Below are positions 4,823 through 19,707 of a stretch of 23,956 bases of DNA, in pieces (within the stretch, counting starts at the first letter, position 1; the number at the start of each line of letters is the position of its first letter). The stretch is taken from UHGV virus genome UHGV-0168080; one strand, written 5' to 3'. This stretch comes from a virus. Under the pieces are notes generated by a model, which ran no database searches, was not told the DNA's origin, and saw only the letters and a program-made list of their open reading frames with translations. The translations under genes and the position numbers were made by a program.

Positions 4823-5788
4823 TTAATTATCAGTAGATTGTTCCTCTAGTAACAACTCAATTTTGCTTAGTATTTCTTTAGATATTTTGCGGCTATCAAT
4901 TTTTATAGTTACAAAATTCCCTTTATATCTAGCCGTGATCCCTTCCCCATATTTTTTCTCGTCTTTTGTTTTTTCCTCGTCGCCAACCAGAACAGAGTCA
5001 GATAATATTTGTATAATCCGTGAAGCTTCTAAATCCTCGCCGTTTTTTTTTATTGTCAGAAGATGATGAGCAGCATTGCTCATGGCAGCCATGTTTTTTT
5101 TGTAAATCTTAAACAAAGAATCTCCAGCACGAGCTGACAGTTCTCCTGGATGATTGAAGATAGCTAATATATCTTTTGGTAGACCAGCTGTATTAATACA
5201 GCGAGTGATAATATTTCTATCTATATTTTCAGCCTCGGCCAATGCTTTAACGTTACCATCAAAGTCATTTAGCTTGCGTAAGTATCTCTTTCCTCTTTCG
5301 TATGCACTAATAGGCCTATAATCGTTACCAATTTGGGATAACCAATGCATCTGTTCATCGTCGAGATCACCAATTAAGACGCGATAGTCACATCCTGTTA
5401 ATATCGCTGCTTTTCTTCTACGTGAGCCGTCAGCGACTTCAACGATTCCAGATACTTTTCTGGCGAAAGCTGGATTTTGTTGTCCAGACGTTAGAAAAGA
5501 TGGGATTAAATCGGCTAGAGAGGATTCATTTAATAAATCTTGATCGCGTTCATTACCTAGCCATACCATTGTTGCCATTTCAACTTTATCTGCGGGAATT
5601 GTCTCTAACTTAAAGTTAACATTACGTCCGCATACTGGCAAAGTTATGCTGTTACCGGTTAATGAACTCAGTTGACGTTTTAAATCACCAACCATAGGTG
5701 ATACGGGCTGATGTTCAGGGGCATGATGATTATTACTCATAATGCGATTAATATCTGGAGCATTTTTTAGAAGAGAGCGCTGTTTCAT
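4823..5788 (-). CDS. sopB: Plasmid partition protein SopB (ParB family centromere-binding protein)
   Basis: 321 aa with F SopB-like blocks (ITLPVCGRNVNF, LGNERDQDLL, DGSRRRKAAILT, YRPISAYERG); start overlaps the sopA stop. Confidence 0.9.
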   Translation of the reverse strand: MKQRSLLKNAPDINRIMSNNHHAPEHQPVSPMVGDLKRQLSSLTGNSITLPVCGRNVNFKLETIPADKVEMATMVWLGNERDQDLLNESSLADLIPSFLTSGQQNPAFARKVSGIVEVADGSRRRKAAILTGCDYRVLIGDLDDEQMHWLSQIGNDYRPISAYERGKRYLRKLNDFDGNVKALAEAENIDRNIITRCINTAGLPKDILAIFNHPGELSARAGDSLFKIYKKNMAAMSNAAHHLLTIKKNGEDLEASRIIQILSDSVLVGDEEKTKDEKKYGEGITARYKGNFVTIKIDSRKISKEILSKIELLLEEQSTDN

Positions 5789-6954
5789 TATTCGTTCTCC
5801 CAGCGAGGTTTTATTAGATCATCAAAAATTTCTCTGCAAACAGGGTCCCATATAGAAACAGCATTTCTCCATGCATTCAATGTTGAACGTTGGTTTGCTG
5901 CTTGTTCAAATACTGTTCTCATTTTTATCTGGCCTTTACCTACTTCATCGGTAACGCGTACAACCTGACGTAATACCATTGATCCCCATGTATTTCTTAT
6001 TTGTTCTTCCATCCATCGTGATTGATTCCCTGTAGTGAGACTATATTTAGTCAGAAGTAAGCGAACGGTTGGCTCAAATCCACCTAGGTCAACGCTTTCC
6101 AATAGATCGAGAAGCATTGTGAAAAACTGTAGAACAGAAGCGTAATCAAATAATTCTGCAGGTGTAGCAACAACAATAACGTCAGCGGCACAAACAACGT
6201 TAATGGTTCCTGTACCGAGGTTCGGAGCACTATCTATAACGATAACATCGTAGTTATCCCAAACTGATTCAATAGCTGCGCGCAGCATAAGGTGTGGAGG
6301 ATGAGGCAATTTACCCTGAGCATGATATTGCATGAGATCTGTTTCTATACGATGTAAAGCTAGGCAGCTAGGGATAATGTCTAGCCCAGGCCAACATGTT
6401 GGCTTTATAGCATATTCAGCGTTATCGCGTTCTCCTAAGTAAAATGGCAGTAAAGTATCCTCGGCATGGATATGTAAATCAGGAACATAACCGTGATACA
6501 TAGAGGCTGTACCTTGAGGATCGTTACCTTCAACCAAAAGAACACGATGACCTTGTAATGCTAACCATTGAGCTTGATGTACCGCAGACGATGTTTTATA
6601 AACGCCGCCTTTGTGTGACATAACGGCAAGAACAACAGGGTTTTTATCTTGTGGTCGTTGGTTTGGGTTGCCAAAAACTGCTCGCATACTGTTGATTTGA
6701 TCTATGGTATAACCAGCACGACGTTCAATTCTTCCTCTCATTTCAAAGTCAGGTGCAGGTAAACGCCCGCTCTTCTCAGCATCTCTAATTGCTTGAGGAG
6801 TTACACCAATTAAATCTGCTACTTCAGTAATACCCCATCGGCGGGTGATACGCCGAGCTTCAGGACTATCATCACCGAATTGAGCGATAGCAATTGCTTG
6901 GGTCATTTCTTGACCTCTCGTAACACAATCTTGCAATAGCTTTTTCAAAGACAT
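5788..6954 (-). CDS. sopA: Plasmid partition ATPase SopA (type Ia ParA)
   Basis: 388 aa, collinear with F SopA as I recall it; deviant Walker A KGGVYKTS; N-terminal HTH extension (AIAIAQFGDDSPEARRITRRW); RBS GGAG upstream. Confidence 0.95.
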   Translation of the reverse strand: MSLKKLLQDCVTRGQEMTQAIAIAQFGDDSPEARRITRRWGITEVADLIGVTPQAIRDAEKSGRLPAPDFEMRGRIERRAGYTIDQINSMRAVFGNPNQRPQDKNPVVLAVMSHKGGVYKTSSAVHQAQWLALQGHRVLLVEGNDPQGTASMYHGYVPDLHIHAEDTLLPFYLGERDNAEYAIKPTCWPGLDIIPSCLALHRIETDLMQYHAQGKLPHPPHLMLRAAIESVWDNYDVIVIDSAPNLGTGTINVVCAADVIVVATPAELFDYASVLQFFTMLLDLLESVDLGGFEPTVRLLLTKYSLTTGNQSRWMEEQIRNTWGSMVLRQVVRVTDEVGKGQIKMRTVFEQAANQRSTLNAWRNAVSIWDPVCREIFDDLIKPRWENE

Positions 6955-6975
6955 ACTGTCATCTCCAGCTTGTAA

Positions 6976-7053
6976 CTTTGCTTAATAATTAAATCTTTGC
7001 TTATTTCTAGCAAATTTGCATGAAAAAGGCAAAGCAAAAAGAAAAACGCAAAG
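6976..7053. promoter_or_regulatory. sopAB promoter/operator region with clustered CTTTGC/GCAAAG hexamers
   Basis: CTTTGC at 6976 and 6995, TTTGCA at 7015, GCAAAG at 7029 and 7048, immediately upstream of the sopA start; F SopA autoregulates through CTTTGC repeats. Confidence 0.5.
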
Positions 7054-7242
7054 GAGAATTTTTAAGCTAAATCATCTTTTGTTCCCCTCCCGAAATGCAT
7101 AAAACGAACAACAACATAATCATAAGTAATTGATATTTATTATATTTTTTGAAGAAAGGAAATCATGTAAAACTAGGGAAACATGATAAGAATCATCAAT
7201 GAGATACGTTTTCTCTATTAGTTCTCCCAACCTTACCAATAC

Positions 7243-7310
7243 AAGAACACAAATAAAGAACACAAAAACTAAGTAATGATGCAAACATAATAAAGAACAC
7301 AAATAAAGAA
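7243..7310. repeat. 18-bp direct repeat AAGAACACAAATAAAGAA (x2) plus a further AACACAAA copy on the left flank of the telomere site
   Basis: Exact 18-mer at 7243-7260 and 7293-7310; the reverse-complement motif ATTGTGTT recurs on the right flank (7481, 7503, 7562). Confidence 0.6.
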
Positions 7311-7391
7311 TTAAAGCTAAATGTTAAATAAAGCAGTACACAAAATGAGAATATTACACTAAATAAGAACACTAATCAAGAACATAACGAA

Positions 7392-7433
7392 ACATAATTC
7401 CCCATTATACGCGCGTATAATGGGGAATTATGT
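7392..7433. other. Telomere-resolution site (telRL/tos core): 42-bp perfect palindrome with a central CGCGCG
   Basis: ACATAATTCCCCATTATACGCGCGTATAATGGGGAATTATGT is its own reverse complement, with symmetry centre at 7412/7413. The central 22 bp (CCATTATACGCGCGTATAATGG) is identical to the N15 telO core as I recall it, and the site lies directly upstream of telN. Confidence 0.85.
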
Positions 7434-7603
7434 ACTGATTATCGAAACAAAGTCAAGGAACAAAATTTCACGTTCTGCTATTGTGTTTCATTTTATAGTC
7501 TGATATTGTGTTCTACTATTTTGTGAGTAAGTTAACTAGGTATTGGTTATTTTATTCTTAAATTGTGTTACGATAATCTGAGCGGATAATCAGGAGAAGA
7601 AAG

Positions 7604-9493
7604 ATGAGCAAAGTAAAAATCGGTGAATTAATAAACTCACTTGTTAGCGATGTTGAGTCAATAGATAACTCTGACCGTCCTCAAGGAGAGAAAACAAAAA
7701 AAATAAAGGCCGTTGCATTAAAATTTAAAAATACATTATTTAATGATAAGCGAAAGTTTAGGGGAAAAGGATTAGAAAAGAGAATTACAGCCAACACATT
7801 CAATTCCTATATGAGCAGGGCCAGAAAACGGTTTGATGATAAACTTCATCATAGTTTTGAAAAAAATATACATCGACTATCTGAAAAATATCCTTTATAT
7901 AATGAGGAGCTATTGTCATGGCTCTCTCTACCTGCTGCCGATATTCGCCGGAGAATGTCAGCTTTACAGGCAAAATTAAAATTAATTATTCCTCTGTCCG
8001 AAGATTTATCTAATATCAGAATTGGTGATAATAAAAATAATAATAAGTTAATAAAGTTATCAAATAAATATAAAGAATGGCAATTTGCCATTTCTGATTT
8101 AACTAGCGATAACTGGAAAGATAAACGCGATTATTTATATAAATTACTACAGCAAGGGTCAGCCTTGCTTGAGGAGTTGAATCAGTTAAAGGTTAACCAT
8201 GAGATTCTCTATCATCTCAAACTAAGCCCTGCCGAACGCGCATCTATCCAGCAACGATGGGCGGACGTACTACACAATAAGAAACGTAACGTAGTAGTCA
8301 TTGACTACCCTAAATATATGCAAGCTATTTACGATATTATAAATAGCCCTGCTACATTAAATAATCTAAACACTCGTTCAGGCATGGCTCCTTTGGCATT
8401 TGCTCTTGCTGCATTATCAGGAAGACGAATGATTGAGATTATGTATCAAGGTACATTTACTGTCTCTGGTAAGTATACCGTTGATTTTTTAGGTCAGGCT
8501 AAAAAAAGAACTACTGATGATGTAACCAGAAAAATATATACATTATGCGAAGCAAAAACGTTTGTTTATTTAATAAATGTACTTCGCTCATGCCCAGCAG
8601 CATCTGATTTTGATGAAGTCGTTATGGGTTACGGAAATAACGACACGCGGTCTGAAAACGGACGTATTAATGCCATATTGGCAAAGGCTTTTAATCCATG
8701 GGTTAAATCATTTTTCAATGATAATCGCCGTGTTTATAAAGATAGTCGTGCTATTTATGCCCGTATTGCGTATGAAATGTTTTTCCGCGTAGATCCCCGT
8801 TGGAAAAATGTAGATGAAGATGTTTTCTTTATGGAAATTTTAGGCCATGACGATGAAAACACTCAATTACACTATAAACAATTCAAGCTGGCCAACTTCT
8901 CAAAGACATGGAGGCCAAATACTGGAAACGAAAATACCAGGCTGGAAGCATTGCAGCTGCTTGATGACGAAATGCCTGGATTCGCCAGAGGAGATGCCGG
9001 GGTTCGTCTGCATAACACAGTTAAGCAGCTGGTAGAGCAGGACCCCTCTATAAAAATCACGAACAGCACTCTAAGAGCATTCAAATTTAGCCCAACAATG
9101 ATTAGTCGATACCTGGAATTTGCTGCTGATGCTCTGGGGCAATTTGTTGGCGAAAATGGACAATGGCAGCTGAAAATAGATACTCCAGAAATCGTTATGC
9201 CTGACGAAGAAGAGCTGGAAGCAATACCTGAACAGATGGATGAATTATCAGAGGATGACGATCTGGATGACGACGAAATTGAGATAGAGGAAGAGGAAGA
9301 GAGCGTAGAAGAACAGCAACCGCCAGCGCCTTCTTCACCTGTATCTAAGCCGGTATTTAAGCCTGTGAGAAATATTGGTGATGGCTCATACGTTGTTGAG
9401 TTTCATTATAATGGCCAGAATTATGCGTGGTCAGGCAGTGCAAACAGCCCCATGTCAGCAATGCAGTTAGCATGGCTGACATATTTCGGCTAA
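7604..9493 (+). CDS. telN: Protelomerase TelN (hairpin telomere resolvase)
   Basis: 629 aa; near-collinear with N15 TelN from the N-terminus (MSKVKIGELIN...DRPQG.KTK.IKA...NDKRKFRGKGL.KRITANTFN.YMSRARKRFDDKLHHSF) to the C-terminus; acidic C-terminal tail; RBS AGGAGAAG. Confidence 0.95.
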   Translation: MSKVKIGELINSLVSDVESIDNSDRPQGEKTKKIKAVALKFKNTLFNDKRKFRGKGLEKRITANTFNSYMSRARKRFDDKLHHSFEKNIHRLSEKYPLYNEELLSWLSLPAADIRRRMSALQAKLKLIIPLSEDLSNIRIGDNKNNNKLIKLSNKYKEWQFAISDLTSDNWKDKRDYLYKLLQQGSALLEELNQLKVNHEILYHLKLSPAERASIQQRWADVLHNKKRNVVVIDYPKYMQAIYDIINSPATLNNLNTRSGMAPLAFALAALSGRRMIEIMYQGTFTVSGKYTVDFLGQAKKRTTDDVTRKIYTLCEAKTFVYLINVLRSCPAASDFDEVVMGYGNNDTRSENGRINAILAKAFNPWVKSFFNDNRRVYKDSRAIYARIAYEMFFRVDPRWKNVDEDVFFMEILGHDDENTQLHYKQFKLANFSKTWRPNTGNENTRLEALQLLDDEMPGFARGDAGVRLHNTVKQLVEQDPSIKITNSTLRAFKFSPTMISRYLEFAADALGQFVGENGQWQLKIDTPEIVMPDEEELEAIPEQMDELSEDDDLDDDEIEIEEEEESVEEQQPPAPSSPVSKPVFKPVRNIGDGSYVVEFHYNGQNYAWSGSANSPMSAMQLAWLTYFG

Positions 9494-13603: not shown

Positions 13604-16600
13604 TTACCCATAGAAAGCGCCCTGCTCTTCGTAGCTGCATGGGCTATTCCCGGTAATATATTCACGTAACCGCCGCAGTTCATTACTGGACAAGTGATCC
13701 ATGAACTCTGTTAGGTACAGAGATGCAAACGTCATAGCTATGCTGGCTGATGACCATGATGACATAGTGGCCAGCTCCTCACAGGAAAGCGCACTCATAG
13801 CCCAGGACTCAGGTACAGCCACCGGCAACACTGCCAAAGCCTCAGAAATTACTGAATGAGGGGCGTTTTGAACCTGCTCATTTGTGGATCGCGTTTTATC
13901 ATCCATATATATATTGAGATCCAAATCGCGATCCATTTCGATGGCGGTCTTCTCGGCTTTGCGCGTTTTCAGGGTTAGGCCATCTTTCTGACGCTGAGCA
14001 AGAATATCCAGCATAAATGCCGCTGATTCAGGCTCAACAAAACGCAAGGTTGGACGCTTATCGCCGTCTCTGCCACGACGTTTACCTGTTTTAAGGCCAA
14101 GAGAGTCGCAAATGTTTTTAAACAACGCTTCCGGCACTTTAGGCTTCCCTTTTGGCGTCATAAAACCACCAATGTGCAGAACGTTATTCAACAGGTCACG
14201 GCGTTCGGCTGTCATGAGGTTATCTCGAGCGAATTTGAGACGCTCCTGAGTCGCCTCGCCGGTCATAGTCTCAGGGTTGATACCGCAGTCGATAAAGTAC
14301 TGCCGGAGAGTTGCTGATTTAAGCGCATAGAAACCGCGCGCCCCGACTTCAACAGTAGGAGTAGCTTTTACCTTGTAGTCGATTATTCCAGGGAATTTAG
14401 TTTTAAAGACATCATCAGCCTGCTCGCGAGTCATCGCGGTCACTACAAAATATTGCCACTGTCCCGCCTGACGGTATGCGTAGGTAAAATTGATGGCTGC
14501 TTCTTCCCGGTCGTAACGACGAGCTGTTACCTCATCTAAAAGCATTGTTTCATAGCGGCGAACTTTGTCTCGAGCACCATCGAAATAGAATTTCAGCGTG
14601 CCTTCTTCAACCGGTAGTTTCAGTTCGTTCTCAATATCCCAGCGGACAAGTTTTGCCTGTTCTTCAAGCGTCAGCGCGCGTTTTTTTAGCAGTTCTTCAC
14701 GCTCTGATTCTTGTGGAGTTTCTGTATTGAGATGCAGATCCAGTGTCTGTTCCCACACAATATCCCGCGCTTCTTTACGCAGATCTTTACCGATATCATT
14801 CGCAGCATAATCGGTGGCCAGCGGCGATACCTTATAACCGTCGCTGTGCATGATGCAGATCATGTTGCTGGCGTAGTCGTTACGCGCAGACGCTTCAATT
14901 GCGGCTGCTTTAATTTTCATCCTGGTAAAGTCGGTATTGGCCACCCCCATTGATATACGGTCGCCATCGAAAACGACATCCGTCAGTTCACCGTTCATGC
15001 CTGCGGTAGCAAGCAATGCCTGGGCGAATGCTCGTTCTATTTTTTGCGGGTCAGTTTCACGTTTTGCGCGAGCTTTATCAAAGCCGATAATAAATTCTTT
15101 TGCTGTACGGTCGCGGCGTAGCATTTGCACTGCGTCGCTGGGTACAACTTCACCACAGAACATGCCGAAATGACGGTCAAAATGTTTTTGCTCAATCGAC
15201 ACGCCGGATGAAATAGACGGGCTATAAATCAGGCCGTCGTATTTTTTGACCATCTTTTTCGGTTGATTGGTAAATGCTTCAACTTCTGGCTCTGGTTTGT
15301 TTTTCTGGTTTACACACAGAAATTTCTTACCAGGAAAATGCATTCTCAGGGTGGCGGTCACATCTTCTGCAAAGGTGGAGCTGTCGGTGGCCAACATAAT
15401 TTTTTCGCCATCCGATACAGCTTTCACCACCTCGGTCATAATGCGATCTTTTTCTGTATAAAAAACCCGGATTGGCTCACCTGTTTCGCGGTTGCGAACA
15501 TCAACAGGTAATTCAATTACGTGGATCTGCAGCCATGCGGGTAAACCGAGTTCTTCGCGGCGTTTCATAGCCAGTTCAGCCAGGTCAACCAGCAGATCGT
15601 TCGCATCAGCATCCACCATGATTGGGTGTTGTTCCGTTCTGGCCAGCGCATCAATTAGCGTATTGAATACAGCCACCGGGTTTTCCATAGCCCGACCGGA
15701 AAGAACGGCACGTAGCCCTTGTGTTGCCTCGTCAAAGCCAAAATAGTCGTGCTGGCGCATCAACGGTTGCCAGCAGTTTTTAACAATCGAGTTTATGCAG
15801 ATGGTCAGTTTACTGGCGTATGGGGCCATTTCCTGATAGCCAGGGTCCTGATAGTGCAGGATATCGGCTTTTACACCTTTTCCTTCAGTCATCATTTCCC
15901 ACAGACCACCAATAAGGGAAACACGGTGAGCTACAGAGATACCACGTTCTGAGCTATGCATTAACGGTCGTAACAATCCAGTAGATTTGCCGGAACCCAT
16001 ACCAGCACGGACGATGACTATCCCCTGTAGTGATTGCACGTACTTCAGGACGTCATCGGTCATTACCGAAGTATCAAAACGCTTATAGGTGATATGTTGA
16101 GGGCGTTTATTGGGATCAGTTATGCGTTCGCTGAAAGAGCGCGGAGCCTGGGCAATACGGCACTTTTTATTCAGGCGACGGGCAATATGGTCTTTTACCG
16201 TAGCGCGATAGATATTTTCCAGCCCCATTTCACGCAGAACGATACAGAACATGTTAAATAAATCTGACGGGCTGTTAGGAACCGGACAGGTCAGCATGCC
16301 AATATCTACCGCTCTCAGCAGCTCTTTGGCAAAAGTACGGCGGTTATCCCGCTTAATTGTCTTCAGGCGGTTGAGTGTCAGAGATAGCAAATCAGTACCG
16401 GTTTTCAGGCGGTTTGCTGTTGCGAATAGTTGACGTGCTGTTTCACGAAGTCCACGTAGTTTGTGCAGGTCGTTGAAGTCACTGCACTCCATTTGCGGAT
16501 CGTCTTCAAAAGTTGGGTAGACGCAGCGGACATCGTTGAATTTAGATAAGATTTCATAGCCAGTCCGCAGGCCGGTATTCCCTTTTCCTTCTGTGGCAGA

Positions 16601-17599
16601 TTTCCGGTCATTATCCAGTGCGCAGGTGATTTTTGCCGCCGGGTACATGTTTACCAGTTGTTCCACAACATGAACCATGTTGTTAGCGGATACAGCGACA
16701 ACCACAGCGTCAAAGCGTTTATCTTTTTTCGTGGCAAGCCAGATGGATGCACCAGTAGCAAAACCTTCTGTAACAGCGATGTTTTGCGCCCCTTTCAGCT
16801 CACCGATAACAAAGCAGGCACCGACGAAATCGCCGCTGGTTACTGCGCTGGTCTGGTATTTCCCACCTTGTTTGTCGATTCGCTGCCAACCCACAATACG
16901 ACCATCATAACGACCGTCCAGGTGAGCCAGAGGGATAGCCATATATGTGGTTGGCCCCCGGCTCCATTTCGCACTGTCGTGACTGGTCACGCGACGCACA
17001 TCACATGAACTAAAAACGTCACGAATACCTTTTTTAATCGCATATGGCCATGAGCCGTCTTCAGCCTGAGCATGTTCCCACGCGCTGTGGAATGCCAGCC
17101 ATCCCAGCAAACGTTCATGGTCCATTTGGTTGTTTTTCAGGTCATTAATTCGTTTTTGTTCTTCACGGCGACGACGTGCTTCGGCCTGACGTTCTATTCT
17201 TTCCCGTTCTTCTTCCGGTTGTGCGACCACGGTCGCATTATTCCGTTGTTGCTCACGGCGATATTCAGAAAACAGGAAGGAGAAACCGCTCCATGAGCCA
17301 GCATCGCTGCCTTTATGGACGAAGTTAATGAACGGGTAATCAATCCCTTTGCTGTGTTCCAGCCTGGAGTAAATTTCTACGCGTCCTTTCAGGCTCTTTT
17401 CGAGAGCTTCTGGAGATGTTTTATTGTATGAAGAGTAACGCTCAACCCCCCCGCGAGGGTTGAGTTGGATGTTGTCGGAACAGGCAGGCCAGTTGATACC
17501 AGCCATCTGTGCCAGCTCGGTTAGTTCATCCCGTGCTGCTTCAATTAGCGAGAACGGATCGCTGCCAAAGCGATCCGCATAGAAATCGTTTAATGTCAT
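13604..17599 (-). CDS. repA: Replication protein RepA (multidomain primase-helicase, N15 RepA-like)
   Basis: 1331 aa; Walker A GMGSGKSTG inside a helicase-like core; size and position (upstream of cB, same strand) match N15 repA. Confidence 0.92.
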   Translation of the reverse strand: MTLNDFYADRFGSDPFSLIEAARDELTELAQMAGINWPACSDNIQLNPRGGVERYSSYNKTSPEALEKSLKGRVEIYSRLEHSKGIDYPFINFVHKGSDAGSWSGFSFLFSEYRREQQRNNATVVAQPEEERERIERQAEARRRREEQKRINDLKNNQMDHERLLGWLAFHSAWEHAQAEDGSWPYAIKKGIRDVFSSCDVRRVTSHDSAKWSRGPTTYMAIPLAHLDGRYDGRIVGWQRIDKQGGKYQTSAVTSGDFVGACFVIGELKGAQNIAVTEGFATGASIWLATKKDKRFDAVVVAVSANNMVHVVEQLVNMYPAAKITCALDNDRKSATEGKGNTGLRTGYEILSKFNDVRCVYPTFEDDPQMECSDFNDLHKLRGLRETARQLFATANRLKTGTDLLSLTLNRLKTIKRDNRRTFAKELLRAVDIGMLTCPVPNSPSDLFNMFCIVLREMGLENIYRATVKDHIARRLNKKCRIAQAPRSFSERITDPNKRPQHITYKRFDTSVMTDDVLKYVQSLQGIVIVRAGMGSGKSTGLLRPLMHSSERGISVAHRVSLIGGLWEMMTEGKGVKADILHYQDPGYQEMAPYASKLTICINSIVKNCWQPLMRQHDYFGFDEATQGLRAVLSGRAMENPVAVFNTLIDALARTEQHPIMVDADANDLLVDLAELAMKRREELGLPAWLQIHVIELPVDVRNRETGEPIRVFYTEKDRIMTEVVKAVSDGEKIMLATDSSTFAEDVTATLRMHFPGKKFLCVNQKNKPEPEVEAFTNQPKKMVKKYDGLIYSPSISSGVSIEQKHFDRHFGMFCGEVVPSDAVQMLRRDRTAKEFIIGFDKARAKRETDPQKIERAFAQALLATAGMNGELTDVVFDGDRISMGVANTDFTRMKIKAAAIEASARNDYASNMICIMHSDGYKVSPLATDYAANDIGKDLRKEARDIVWEQTLDLHLNTETPQESEREELLKKRALTLEEQAKLVRWDIENELKLPVEEGTLKFYFDGARDKVRRYETMLLDEVTARRYDREEAAINFTYAYRQAGQWQYFVVTAMTREQADDVFKTKFPGIIDYKVKATPTVEVGARGFYALKSATLRQYFIDCGINPETMTGEATQERLKFARDNLMTAERRDLLNNVLHIGGFMTPKGKPKVPEALFKNICDSLGLKTGKRRGRDGDKRPTLRFVEPESAAFMLDILAQRQKDGLTLKTRKAEKTAIEMDRDLDLNIYMDDKTRSTNEQVQNAPHSVISEALAVLPVAVPESWAMSALSCEELATMSSWSSASIAMTFASLYLTEFMDHLSSNELRRLREYITGNSPCSYEEQGAFYG
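13885..13935. other. Candidate internal replication origin element inside the 3' end of repA
   Basis: 9-bp inverted repeat TGGATCGCG (13885-13893) / CGCGATCCA (13927-13935) flanking an (AT)5 tract. Confidence 0.3.
17222..17237. repeat. sopC-like centromere box TGCGACC-AC-GGTCGCA (candidate SopB binding site) inside repA
   Basis: 16-bp palindrome with the same architecture as the F sopC core TGGGACC-AC-GGTCCCA. Confidence 0.5.
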
Positions 17600-19454: not shown

Positions 19455-19707
19455 ACAAGTTATGTTCAGGAAACCGTCGAAGCCAGAATTAAGGTATTCG
19501 GGGGTAAGAAATGAATATGTTATCTGGTGTCCAACTTGTGGTTACAGGACACGACCAGATAGTAATAAGCAGTCTGTAATTGCCGATTGGTATTTATCAA
19601 ATCAGCCAGGTAATAAGCATATAGAAAATCTTTGGATTAAGCGTTACTTGGAAATCAGAGAGGGTGCGACCGTGGTCGCACAAGAAAATGAAAATAACGC
19701 CATTTAA
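19387..19707 (+). CDS. Small putative zinc-ribbon protein (start uncertain)
   Basis: Cys pairs CLC...CPTC; the 5' end overlaps the preceding gene, and the true start may be internal (ATG at 19462). Confidence 0.45.
   Translation: MRRRSAVKSSNAIGQEVPFCLCKQVMFRKPSKPELRYSGVRNEYVIWCPTCGYRTRPDSNKQSVIADWYLSNQPGNKHIENLWIKRYLEIREGATVVAQENENNAI
19664..19681. repeat. sopC-like centromere box GTGCGACC-GT-GGTCGCAC (second copy)
   Basis: 18-bp palindrome with 8-bp arms and the same core as the copy at 17222. Confidence 0.5.

Follow-up and report, generated by a model that had tools for sequence, protein, structure and literature searches.

The closest described system is tos of N15, where the natural TelN target spans 310 bp. 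Its 56-bp telRL consists of telO and the L3/R3 motifs, and degenerate copies of L3/R3, named L1, L2, R1 and R2, are found in the DNA adjoining telRL (PMC12624138). The account given there credits the description of these L/R repeats to Deneke et al. (2000, 2002). [quoted passage not shown] In PY54, the pal site is accompanied by a flanking 15-bp inverted repeat (Hertwig et al. 2003, in the summary provided by PMC10612081). This repeat has been suggested to matter in vivo (PMC10612081; PMC3540006), and the flanking repeat of P840 is dispensable for processing (PMC10612081). TelK and TelN contain an additional C-terminal DNA-binding domain, the stirrup, which is absent from the smaller TelA (PMC3558466). 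For N15, a study from 2025 proposed L1/L2/R1/R2 as binding sites of TelN CTD1, the domain equivalent to the stirrup region, and called such binding 'conceivable' (PMC12624138).

In the window (the whole 23,956-nt stretch of DNA that was analysed), sopA (SopA/ParA-type ATPase; 5788–6954, minus strand), followed by sopB (4823–5788, minus strand), is divergent from telN (7604–9493, plus strand), and the 649-bp intergenic gap between sopA and telN houses the repeats. A telRL lies between sopA and the protelomerase gene; it is a perfect 42-bp palindrome (7392–7433) that carries the N15-type core TATACGCGCGTATA, with its dyad between 7412 and 7413. The telN product, a protelomerase of 629 aa, is 77% identical to N15 TelN and shows the TelK N-terminal, muzzle, catalytic and stirrup (443–533) domains in Pfam. 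Residues 1–536 align with the TelK crystal-structure sequence (PDB 2V6E; E = 8e-292), and the stirrup domain is intact and almost invariant with respect to N15 TelN and TelK. The element thus encodes a cognate protelomerase of TelN/TelK architecture, stirrup included. The presence of sopA, sopB, telN and an N15-type palindrome identifies the window as an N15-like linear phage-plasmid. Among database sequences, those nearest to it are plasmids of Escherichia coli and E. albertii and two phages, PhiR46_1 and YDC107_1.

To the left of the palindrome, an 18-bp repeat, AAGAACACAAATAAAGAA, occurs twice on the plus strand (distances from the dyad are given in bp, with negative values to the left). 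Copy 1 (7243–7260) has its core AACACAA at 7246–7252 (−163.5) and corresponds to GAAACACAATC in N15; copy 2 (7293–7310) has its core at 7296–7302 (−113.5) and aligns with N15 AAGAACACCATA. Thirteen bp after copy 1 lies another plus-strand AACACAA (7259–7265, or to 7266 with an extra A; −150.5). This is the least conserved copy, reading AACATAA in two relatives and being lost (GATCGTAA) in the OY754439 group. A degenerate plus-strand copy, AACATAA (7284–7290; −125.5), is followed by the next copy 12 bp on, and another, TACACAA (7337–7343, plus strand; −72.5), mirrors the right-hand copy at +71.5 and reads AACACAA in the OY754439 group. A third, degenerate unit of 23 nt, AAGAACACTAATCAAGAACATAA (7365–7387, plus strand), contains AACACTA (−41.5) and AACATAA (−28.5). 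Finally, the outer arms of the palindrome carry one-mismatch variants of the motif, AACATAA at 7391–7397 and TTATGTA at 7428–7434, in the position of L3/R3 in N15.

To the right of the palindrome, ATTGTGTT occurs three times on the minus strand, at 7480–7487 (+71.5), 7505–7512 (+96.5) and 7562–7569 (+153.5). The second of these reads ATTATGTT in N15 and some relatives. The third belongs to a block, ATTGTGTTACGATA (7562–7575), that is invariant from the window to N15 and lies 29 bp before the telN start codon; within it, TGTTACGAT resembles an extended −10 element. The +71.5 offset is occupied in 12 of the 13 relatives scanned, N15 and phiKO2 included, the KpLi5 copy being at +78; the +96.5 offset is likewise occupied in 12 of 13, with the Citrobacter plasmid having its copy at +88. 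The consensus of the flank motif is (A/G)AACA(C/T)AA(A/T), exemplified by the single copy AAGAACACAAAT, and it reads toward the dyad on both sides. Also present on the right side, at 7445–7470 (+33 to +58), is a conserved GAACA-type plus-strand element (GAAACAAAGTCAAGGAACAAAA in the window, GAGAACATAAGCGCAGAACAATA in N15, GTAACACAG in phiKO2), which opposes the orientation of the R array and in relatives forms a small inverted repeat, GGAAC-N10-GTTCC. A direct repeat of GATAATC (7572–7578 and 7585–7591) follows the last motif copy and precedes the ribosome-binding site of telN (AGGAG, 7592–7596); it is kept in the Escherichia group and absent from N15 and phiKO2.

Exact AACACAA sites are strongly concentrated at this locus. 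Six of the nine in the 23,956-nt window fall within a 330-bp stretch (binomial P about 1.5e-9), with three plus-strand sites to the left of the palindrome and three minus-strand sites to its right, and no exact copy in the opposite orientation was found in either flank. As the left flank is 54% A, we shuffled each flank alone (n = 5000, dinucleotides preserved), which allows for an A-rich left and a T-rich right side. The left flank contains three copies, compared to a shuffle mean of 0.29, with 6 of 5000 shuffles reaching three; for the right flank, the corresponding values are three copies, a mean of 0.06 and 0 of 5000. Because the enrichment survives these separate shuffles, we reject an origin by chance or composition. 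When one mismatch was allowed, nine plus-strand copies were seen left of the dyad (−171.5 to −18.5), and three minus-strand copies (+71.5, +96.5, +153.5) plus one plus-strand copy (+49.5) right of it, compared to 38 plus-strand and 36 minus-strand copies in the 23.5 kb outside the stretch. The degenerate plus-strand copy on the right side, between about +36 and +50, breaks the clean polarity. When checked for helical phasing, the offsets 18.5, 71.5, 96.5 and 153.5 fitted no simple 10.5-bp register. Thus, the oppositely oriented AACACAA arrays are non-random, and their exact copies are strictly oriented. A preliminary description of this DNA had pointed out such arrays around the palindrome, and they prove to be real, with three plus-strand copies on the left and three minus-strand copies on the right, beyond what shuffling yields. 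Its positions were accurate for the plus-strand 18-bp repeat (7243, 7293) and for the copy at 7562; those given for the other two minus-strand copies, 7481 and 7503, were off by 1 and 2 nt (actual 7480 and 7505).

We aligned the intergenic region of the window with those of eight Escherichia relatives (72–96% identical) and N15 (about 70%). The copies emerge as conserved islands, aligned to GAAACACAATC, AAGAACACCATA, GTTGTGTT, ATTATGTTCT and ATTGTGTTACGATA of N15. Among the Escherichia sequences, 5 of 42 motif columns are variable, compared to 98 of 295 elsewhere (P = 0.004), and with N15 added these numbers become 7 of 42 and 178 of 295 (P = 8e-8). We also scanned for [AC]ACA[CT]AA around the dyad in 14 elements, namely the window, the Escherichia relatives, N15, two Enterobacter plasmids, a Citrobacter plasmid, phiKO2 and KpLi5. 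Minus-strand copies at about +72, +96 and +154 were seen in almost all of them, with small shifts or one missing copy, and the +154 copy was present in 14 of 14. Plus-strand copies at −162/−164 and −112 to −116 were found in most of the 14. In an ungapped stack of the right flanks of these elements, the distance from the dyad to telN is fixed at about 191 bp. Identity between three lineages is 0.75 in the motif 8-mers versus 0.46 in the remaining flank, a motif value reached by 190 of 20,000 random 8-mer triples, and in the 8-mer that begins at +151 the lineages agree completely (100%). Over the range to N15 and phiKO2, spacer identity has fallen to 28–50%, with substitutions avoiding the motif columns. 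These data show that the flank repeats are under purifying selection and that their offsets are nearly fixed across genera. The preliminary description had made its proposal depend on conservation of the motifs in related phage-plasmids, and they are indeed kept in Escherichia, Enterobacter, Citrobacter and Klebsiella elements, N15 and phiKO2.

Two records bear on the fate of the palindrome. In CP088810.1, at least 721 bp are duplicated in inverted form about the dyad, with zero mismatches and with a sopA gene to either side; the left arm of this record agrees with the window at 1158 of 1158 positions. The same pattern of inverted duplication, with telN on both sides, is present in the YDC107_1 record. 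We attribute the duplication in CP088810.1 to assembler read-through of a hairpin, which is indirect evidence that the palindrome is a real hairpin end, and the assembly signature of both records is that of a palindrome resolved into hairpin ends. As the palindrome is cut in the prophage, the L and R arrays come to lie at opposite ends of the molecule. The linear prophage would then carry the L array and sopAB at its left hairpin and the R array and telN at its right hairpin, with each array having the same polarity toward its own end. After replication, the junctions telLL and telRR would each have identical arrays on their two sides, in perfect symmetry.

A different anomaly is seen in NZ_CP165740.1, a relative that lacks the whole palindrome, about 50 bp being deleted between the L and R arrays (window about 7391–7439). 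The gap is located in the middle of a record labelled linear, and may be an assembly artefact at the hairpin/palindrome or a real deletion of telRL. As for the window itself, its two arms differ in their relationships. The left arm is 100% identical to that of CP088810.1 over at least 1158 bp, and for the right arm, telN included, no plasmid in the collection matches above about 95.5%. Between +22 and +120, the right flank is unlike all relatives save at the motif copies. This pattern suggests that the two arms (6955–7433 versus 7434–9493) may be of different history, through recombination or arm exchange at or near telRL.

The preliminary description had likened the arrays to the L/R accessory repeats of N15 tos, and here the likeness extends to a position-for-position alignment, within the region bracketed by the tos primers. 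Offsets −164, +72, +96 and +154 are shared with the N15 repeats, and the copies are degenerate versions of the motif in the outer arms (L3/R3), with the two sides oppositely oriented. Given this alignment and the published architecture of tos, we regard the arrays as the counterparts of the N15 accessory repeats L1/L2/R1/R2, and hence as a previously described kind of element, with little room for doubt. That same description had further argued that the motif is not part of the palindrome arms, and that the accessory module has therefore been reshuffled. It is true that exact AACACAA or TTGTGTT is missing from the 42-bp palindrome. However, the outer arms, AACATAAT and ATTATGTA (ATTATGT(A)), carry a one-mismatch version at ±18.5, where N15 has L3/R3 (CACACAAT and ATTGTGTG). 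Arm and flank motifs differ by a single C-to-T change, and the flank copies of relatives vary in this way more often than in any other; several plasmids, for example, have AACATAA instead of AACACAA at 7259 and 7296. Moreover, the flank copies follow each other as in N15 and phiKO2 and lie at the same dyad offsets, so there has been no reshuffling. On the strength of the alignment with N15 and its relatives, we reject a rearranged module that no longer matches its own arms, which is an extremely unlikely reading. Could the arrays instead be functionless remnants of a longer terminal inverted repeat, once one long palindrome and now decaying? There is weak extended inverted symmetry (37-nt arms 70% complementary, 27–30-nt arms 77–78%), and the A/T skew is mirrored across the dyad. 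But a decayed palindrome would not account for substitutions that avoid the motif columns in Escherichia, N15 and phiKO2 amid such divergent spacers, nor for the direct repeats within each side, and the offsets of the two sides are not mirror images (−113.5 versus +96.5). We consider this explanation very improbable. The location upstream of sopA could also bring to mind SopB centromere or SopA operator sites of the adjacent sop operon, an identity that we judge extremely unlikely. Centromere palindromes of the N15 type, GCGACCACGGTCGC and GCGACCGTGGTCGC, are located elsewhere, at 17223 and 19666; the four F-type SopA operator hexamers, CTTTGC, cluster separately at 6976–7053; AACACAA is not palindromic; and half of the copies are on the telN side. 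Neither a GCGACCnnGGTCGC-type palindrome nor CTTTGC is found in the arrays, and the Sop-site identity was rejected.

The reading toward which we lean is that the flank copies are putative secondary binding sites for TelN. Binding would probably be mediated by the C-terminal stirrup domain, which is thought also to read the outer arms. The flank motif matches that of the outer arm, which is found 15–21 bp from the dyad; this is the outer edge of the site, where the stirrup of TelK and TelN is located. PY54 is informative in this respect. Its palindrome arm ends in AGGTTAC (+21), and GGTTAC is found again at +71, +98 and +146 and, mirror-oriented, at −97, the three copies in the right flank comparing to 0.06 expected (0 of 5000 shuffles). 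In PY54, then, flank and arm motifs have changed together, which points to the protelomerase as the binder. Purifying selection, nearly fixed offsets and this co-variation argue for functional protelomerase sites. An alternative is that the copies are mainly promoter or operator elements without TelN binding. On the right, TTGTGT (+72) would be the −35 and TATTGT (+96) the −10 element of a telN-directed promoter, with TGTTACGAT (+154) as an extended −10; the left copies would form a sop-directed promoter, or sites for a host regulator or another phage regulator. In line with this, the +72 and +96 copies, at a spacing of 25 bp, read TTGTGT-17-TATTGT (N15 has TTGTGT-16-TATTAT), the block ATTGTGTTACGATA includes TGn-TACGAT 29 bp upstream of the telN ATG, and GTTACGATAA is likewise found upstream of tel in PY54. 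On the other hand, a 7–8-mer is repeated three to nine times per side, even where no gene start follows. The motif is also mirrored across the dyad, matches the outer arm and changes with the arm in PY54, none of which is expected of sigma-70 hexamers. TTGTGT agrees with the −35 consensus at just three of six positions. When the window, N15 and phiKO2 were scanned with promoter consensus sequences, promoter-like sites were no more numerous than in shuffled DNA, and the candidates are not conserved between lineages. We therefore leave sop P2 and the telN promoter unassigned, and regard a purely promoter-based role as unlikely. Promoter function and TelN binding are nonetheless compatible, as repressor sites often overlap promoters.

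Several other elements in the gap merit mention. The best promoter-like site in the region, TTGACT-18-CATAAT (7427–7456, minus strand; 10 of 12 matches), has its −10 element in the right arm of the palindrome. It reads across the dyad toward sopA, and it is kept in the Escherichia relatives and not evident in N15. This promoter could reach sopA only when telRL is uncut, as in circular phage DNA, and resolution would disconnect it. AATCAAGAACATAA was checked by eye against the IHF-type consensus and does not fit. Just upstream of sopA, the CTTTGC hexamers are arranged around AGCAAATTTGCA, two on the plus strand (6976, 6995) and two on the minus strand (7029, 7048), with 19 bp within pairs. We take this arrangement at 6976–7053 to resemble the SopA operator of the F plasmid sop promoter. 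It is conserved in N15, as GCAAAG repeats, and a plausible minus-strand promoter, TTGCCT-17-TAGAAA, lies among the hexamers. The 14-bp palindromes GCGACCACGGTCGC (17223–17236) and GCGACCGTGGTCGC (19666–19679) look like dispersed SopB centromere sites of the N15 type. The former is inside a RepA-like ORF of 1331 aa (13604–17599), and an N15 centromere has been placed within the corresponding RepA-like gene (PMC2847241).

What might TelN do at the flank sites? Function is the least secure part of the argument, with three candidate roles: help with processing in vivo, capping, and regulation. A role in processing would fit the suggestion made for PY54, but the sufficiency of the 56-bp telRL in N15 and the dispensable flanking repeat of P840 count against it. 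Extra TelN bound there would raise the local concentration of the protein for resolution in vivo. TelN would also occupy telomere-proximal promoters, such that telN would be autoregulated and sop coupled to TelN. For N15, a second, upstream sop promoter is reportedly repressed by TelN, as Dorokhov, Lane and Ravin are said to have found in 2003, and regulation of telN expression was reportedly the subject of work by Dorokhov et al. in 2004. By analogy, TelN may control the sop and telN promoters of the window element. We consider regulation together with local recruitment of TelN the most likely role of the repeats. From N15-like elements to PY54, copies lie at near-fixed distances (about +72, about +97 and one by the tel start) despite the change of motif, and on this basis one can speculate about a larger assembly. 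In enterobacterial telomere phages, each telomere-proximal 150–170 bp might hold a spacing-constrained complex of several protelomerases, a 'telosome', though we view this only as a tentative idea. Such a complex, rather than just a dimer on the palindrome, would tie the processing and capping of ends to control of telN and sop. [quoted passage not shown] The dispensability of CTD1 weakens the capping part of the model.

Taken together, the arrays are the tos accessory repeats that an N15-like phage-plasmid would be expected to have, and not a rearranged or new module. The comparative part of the analysis may be of wider use, since 25 years after the repeats were described, TelN binding to them was still termed merely 'conceivable' in 2025 (PMC12624138). 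The copies at +72, +96, +154 and −164 would be the first ones to mutate. The result is also relevant to TelN/tos biotechnology, such as linear vectors, doggybone DNA and linearised chromosomes, in which the minimal site of 56 bp is often employed with no flanking DNA.

Like N15 tos, the locus is situated between sopA and telN, and the two share their core (TATACGCGCGTATA), the ACACAA/TTGTGT motif family with inverted polarity, the offsets (−164, +72, +96, +154) and the dyad-to-telN distance (about 191 bp), with TelN proteins that are 77% identical. The locus differs in having a perfect 42-mer, whereas the 56-bp telRL of N15 contains two 3-bp non-palindromic spacers, and in its arm motif, ACATAAT rather than ACACAAT. 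The left array is also richer than in N15, with the 18-bp unit present twice, a degenerate third unit, and paired copies 12–13 bp apart, and the intergenic DNA of the two is about 70% identical. The right flanks of phiKO2 (TelK) and the Klebsiella/Citrobacter phage-plasmids again have TTGTGT-type copies at +72, +96 and +154, and their left flanks have copies of the ACACAA type. The Klebsiella group differs in having an extra right copy at +134 (GATTGTGTGAT), left offsets of −116, −176 and −182, and a telRL palindrome of 50 bp.

Repetition of an arm motif in the flanks appears to be general among telomere phages. The distant Hapunaviruses VP882 and phiHAP-1 have their own arm-related motif, TATGTATG/TAGGGC, repeated in the flanks, although these repeats are of mixed orientation, making the comparison qualitative only. 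In VP882 (550–850) and phiHAP-1 (580–865; six copies), many copies of TAGGGC..TATGTATGTA are found around a palindrome with the core CCCATACTATAC|GTATAGTATGGG. PY54 pal shares several features with the window: a 42-bp palindrome with an identical central TACGCGCGTA, flank copies that repeat the outer motif of the arm, and similar offsets (+71, +98 and one near the tel start). In PY54, however, the motif is GGTTAC and not TTGTGT, Tel is 43% identical, and the left neighbour is icd rather than sopA. PY54 also has a perfect 15-bp flanking inverted repeat, AATTAAAGTAACCCA/TGGGTTACTTTAATT. The window is without such a GGTTAC repeat, its best flank inverted repeats being 70–85% complementary. The arrays in the window would work like the flanking repeat of PY54, yet they belong to another system.
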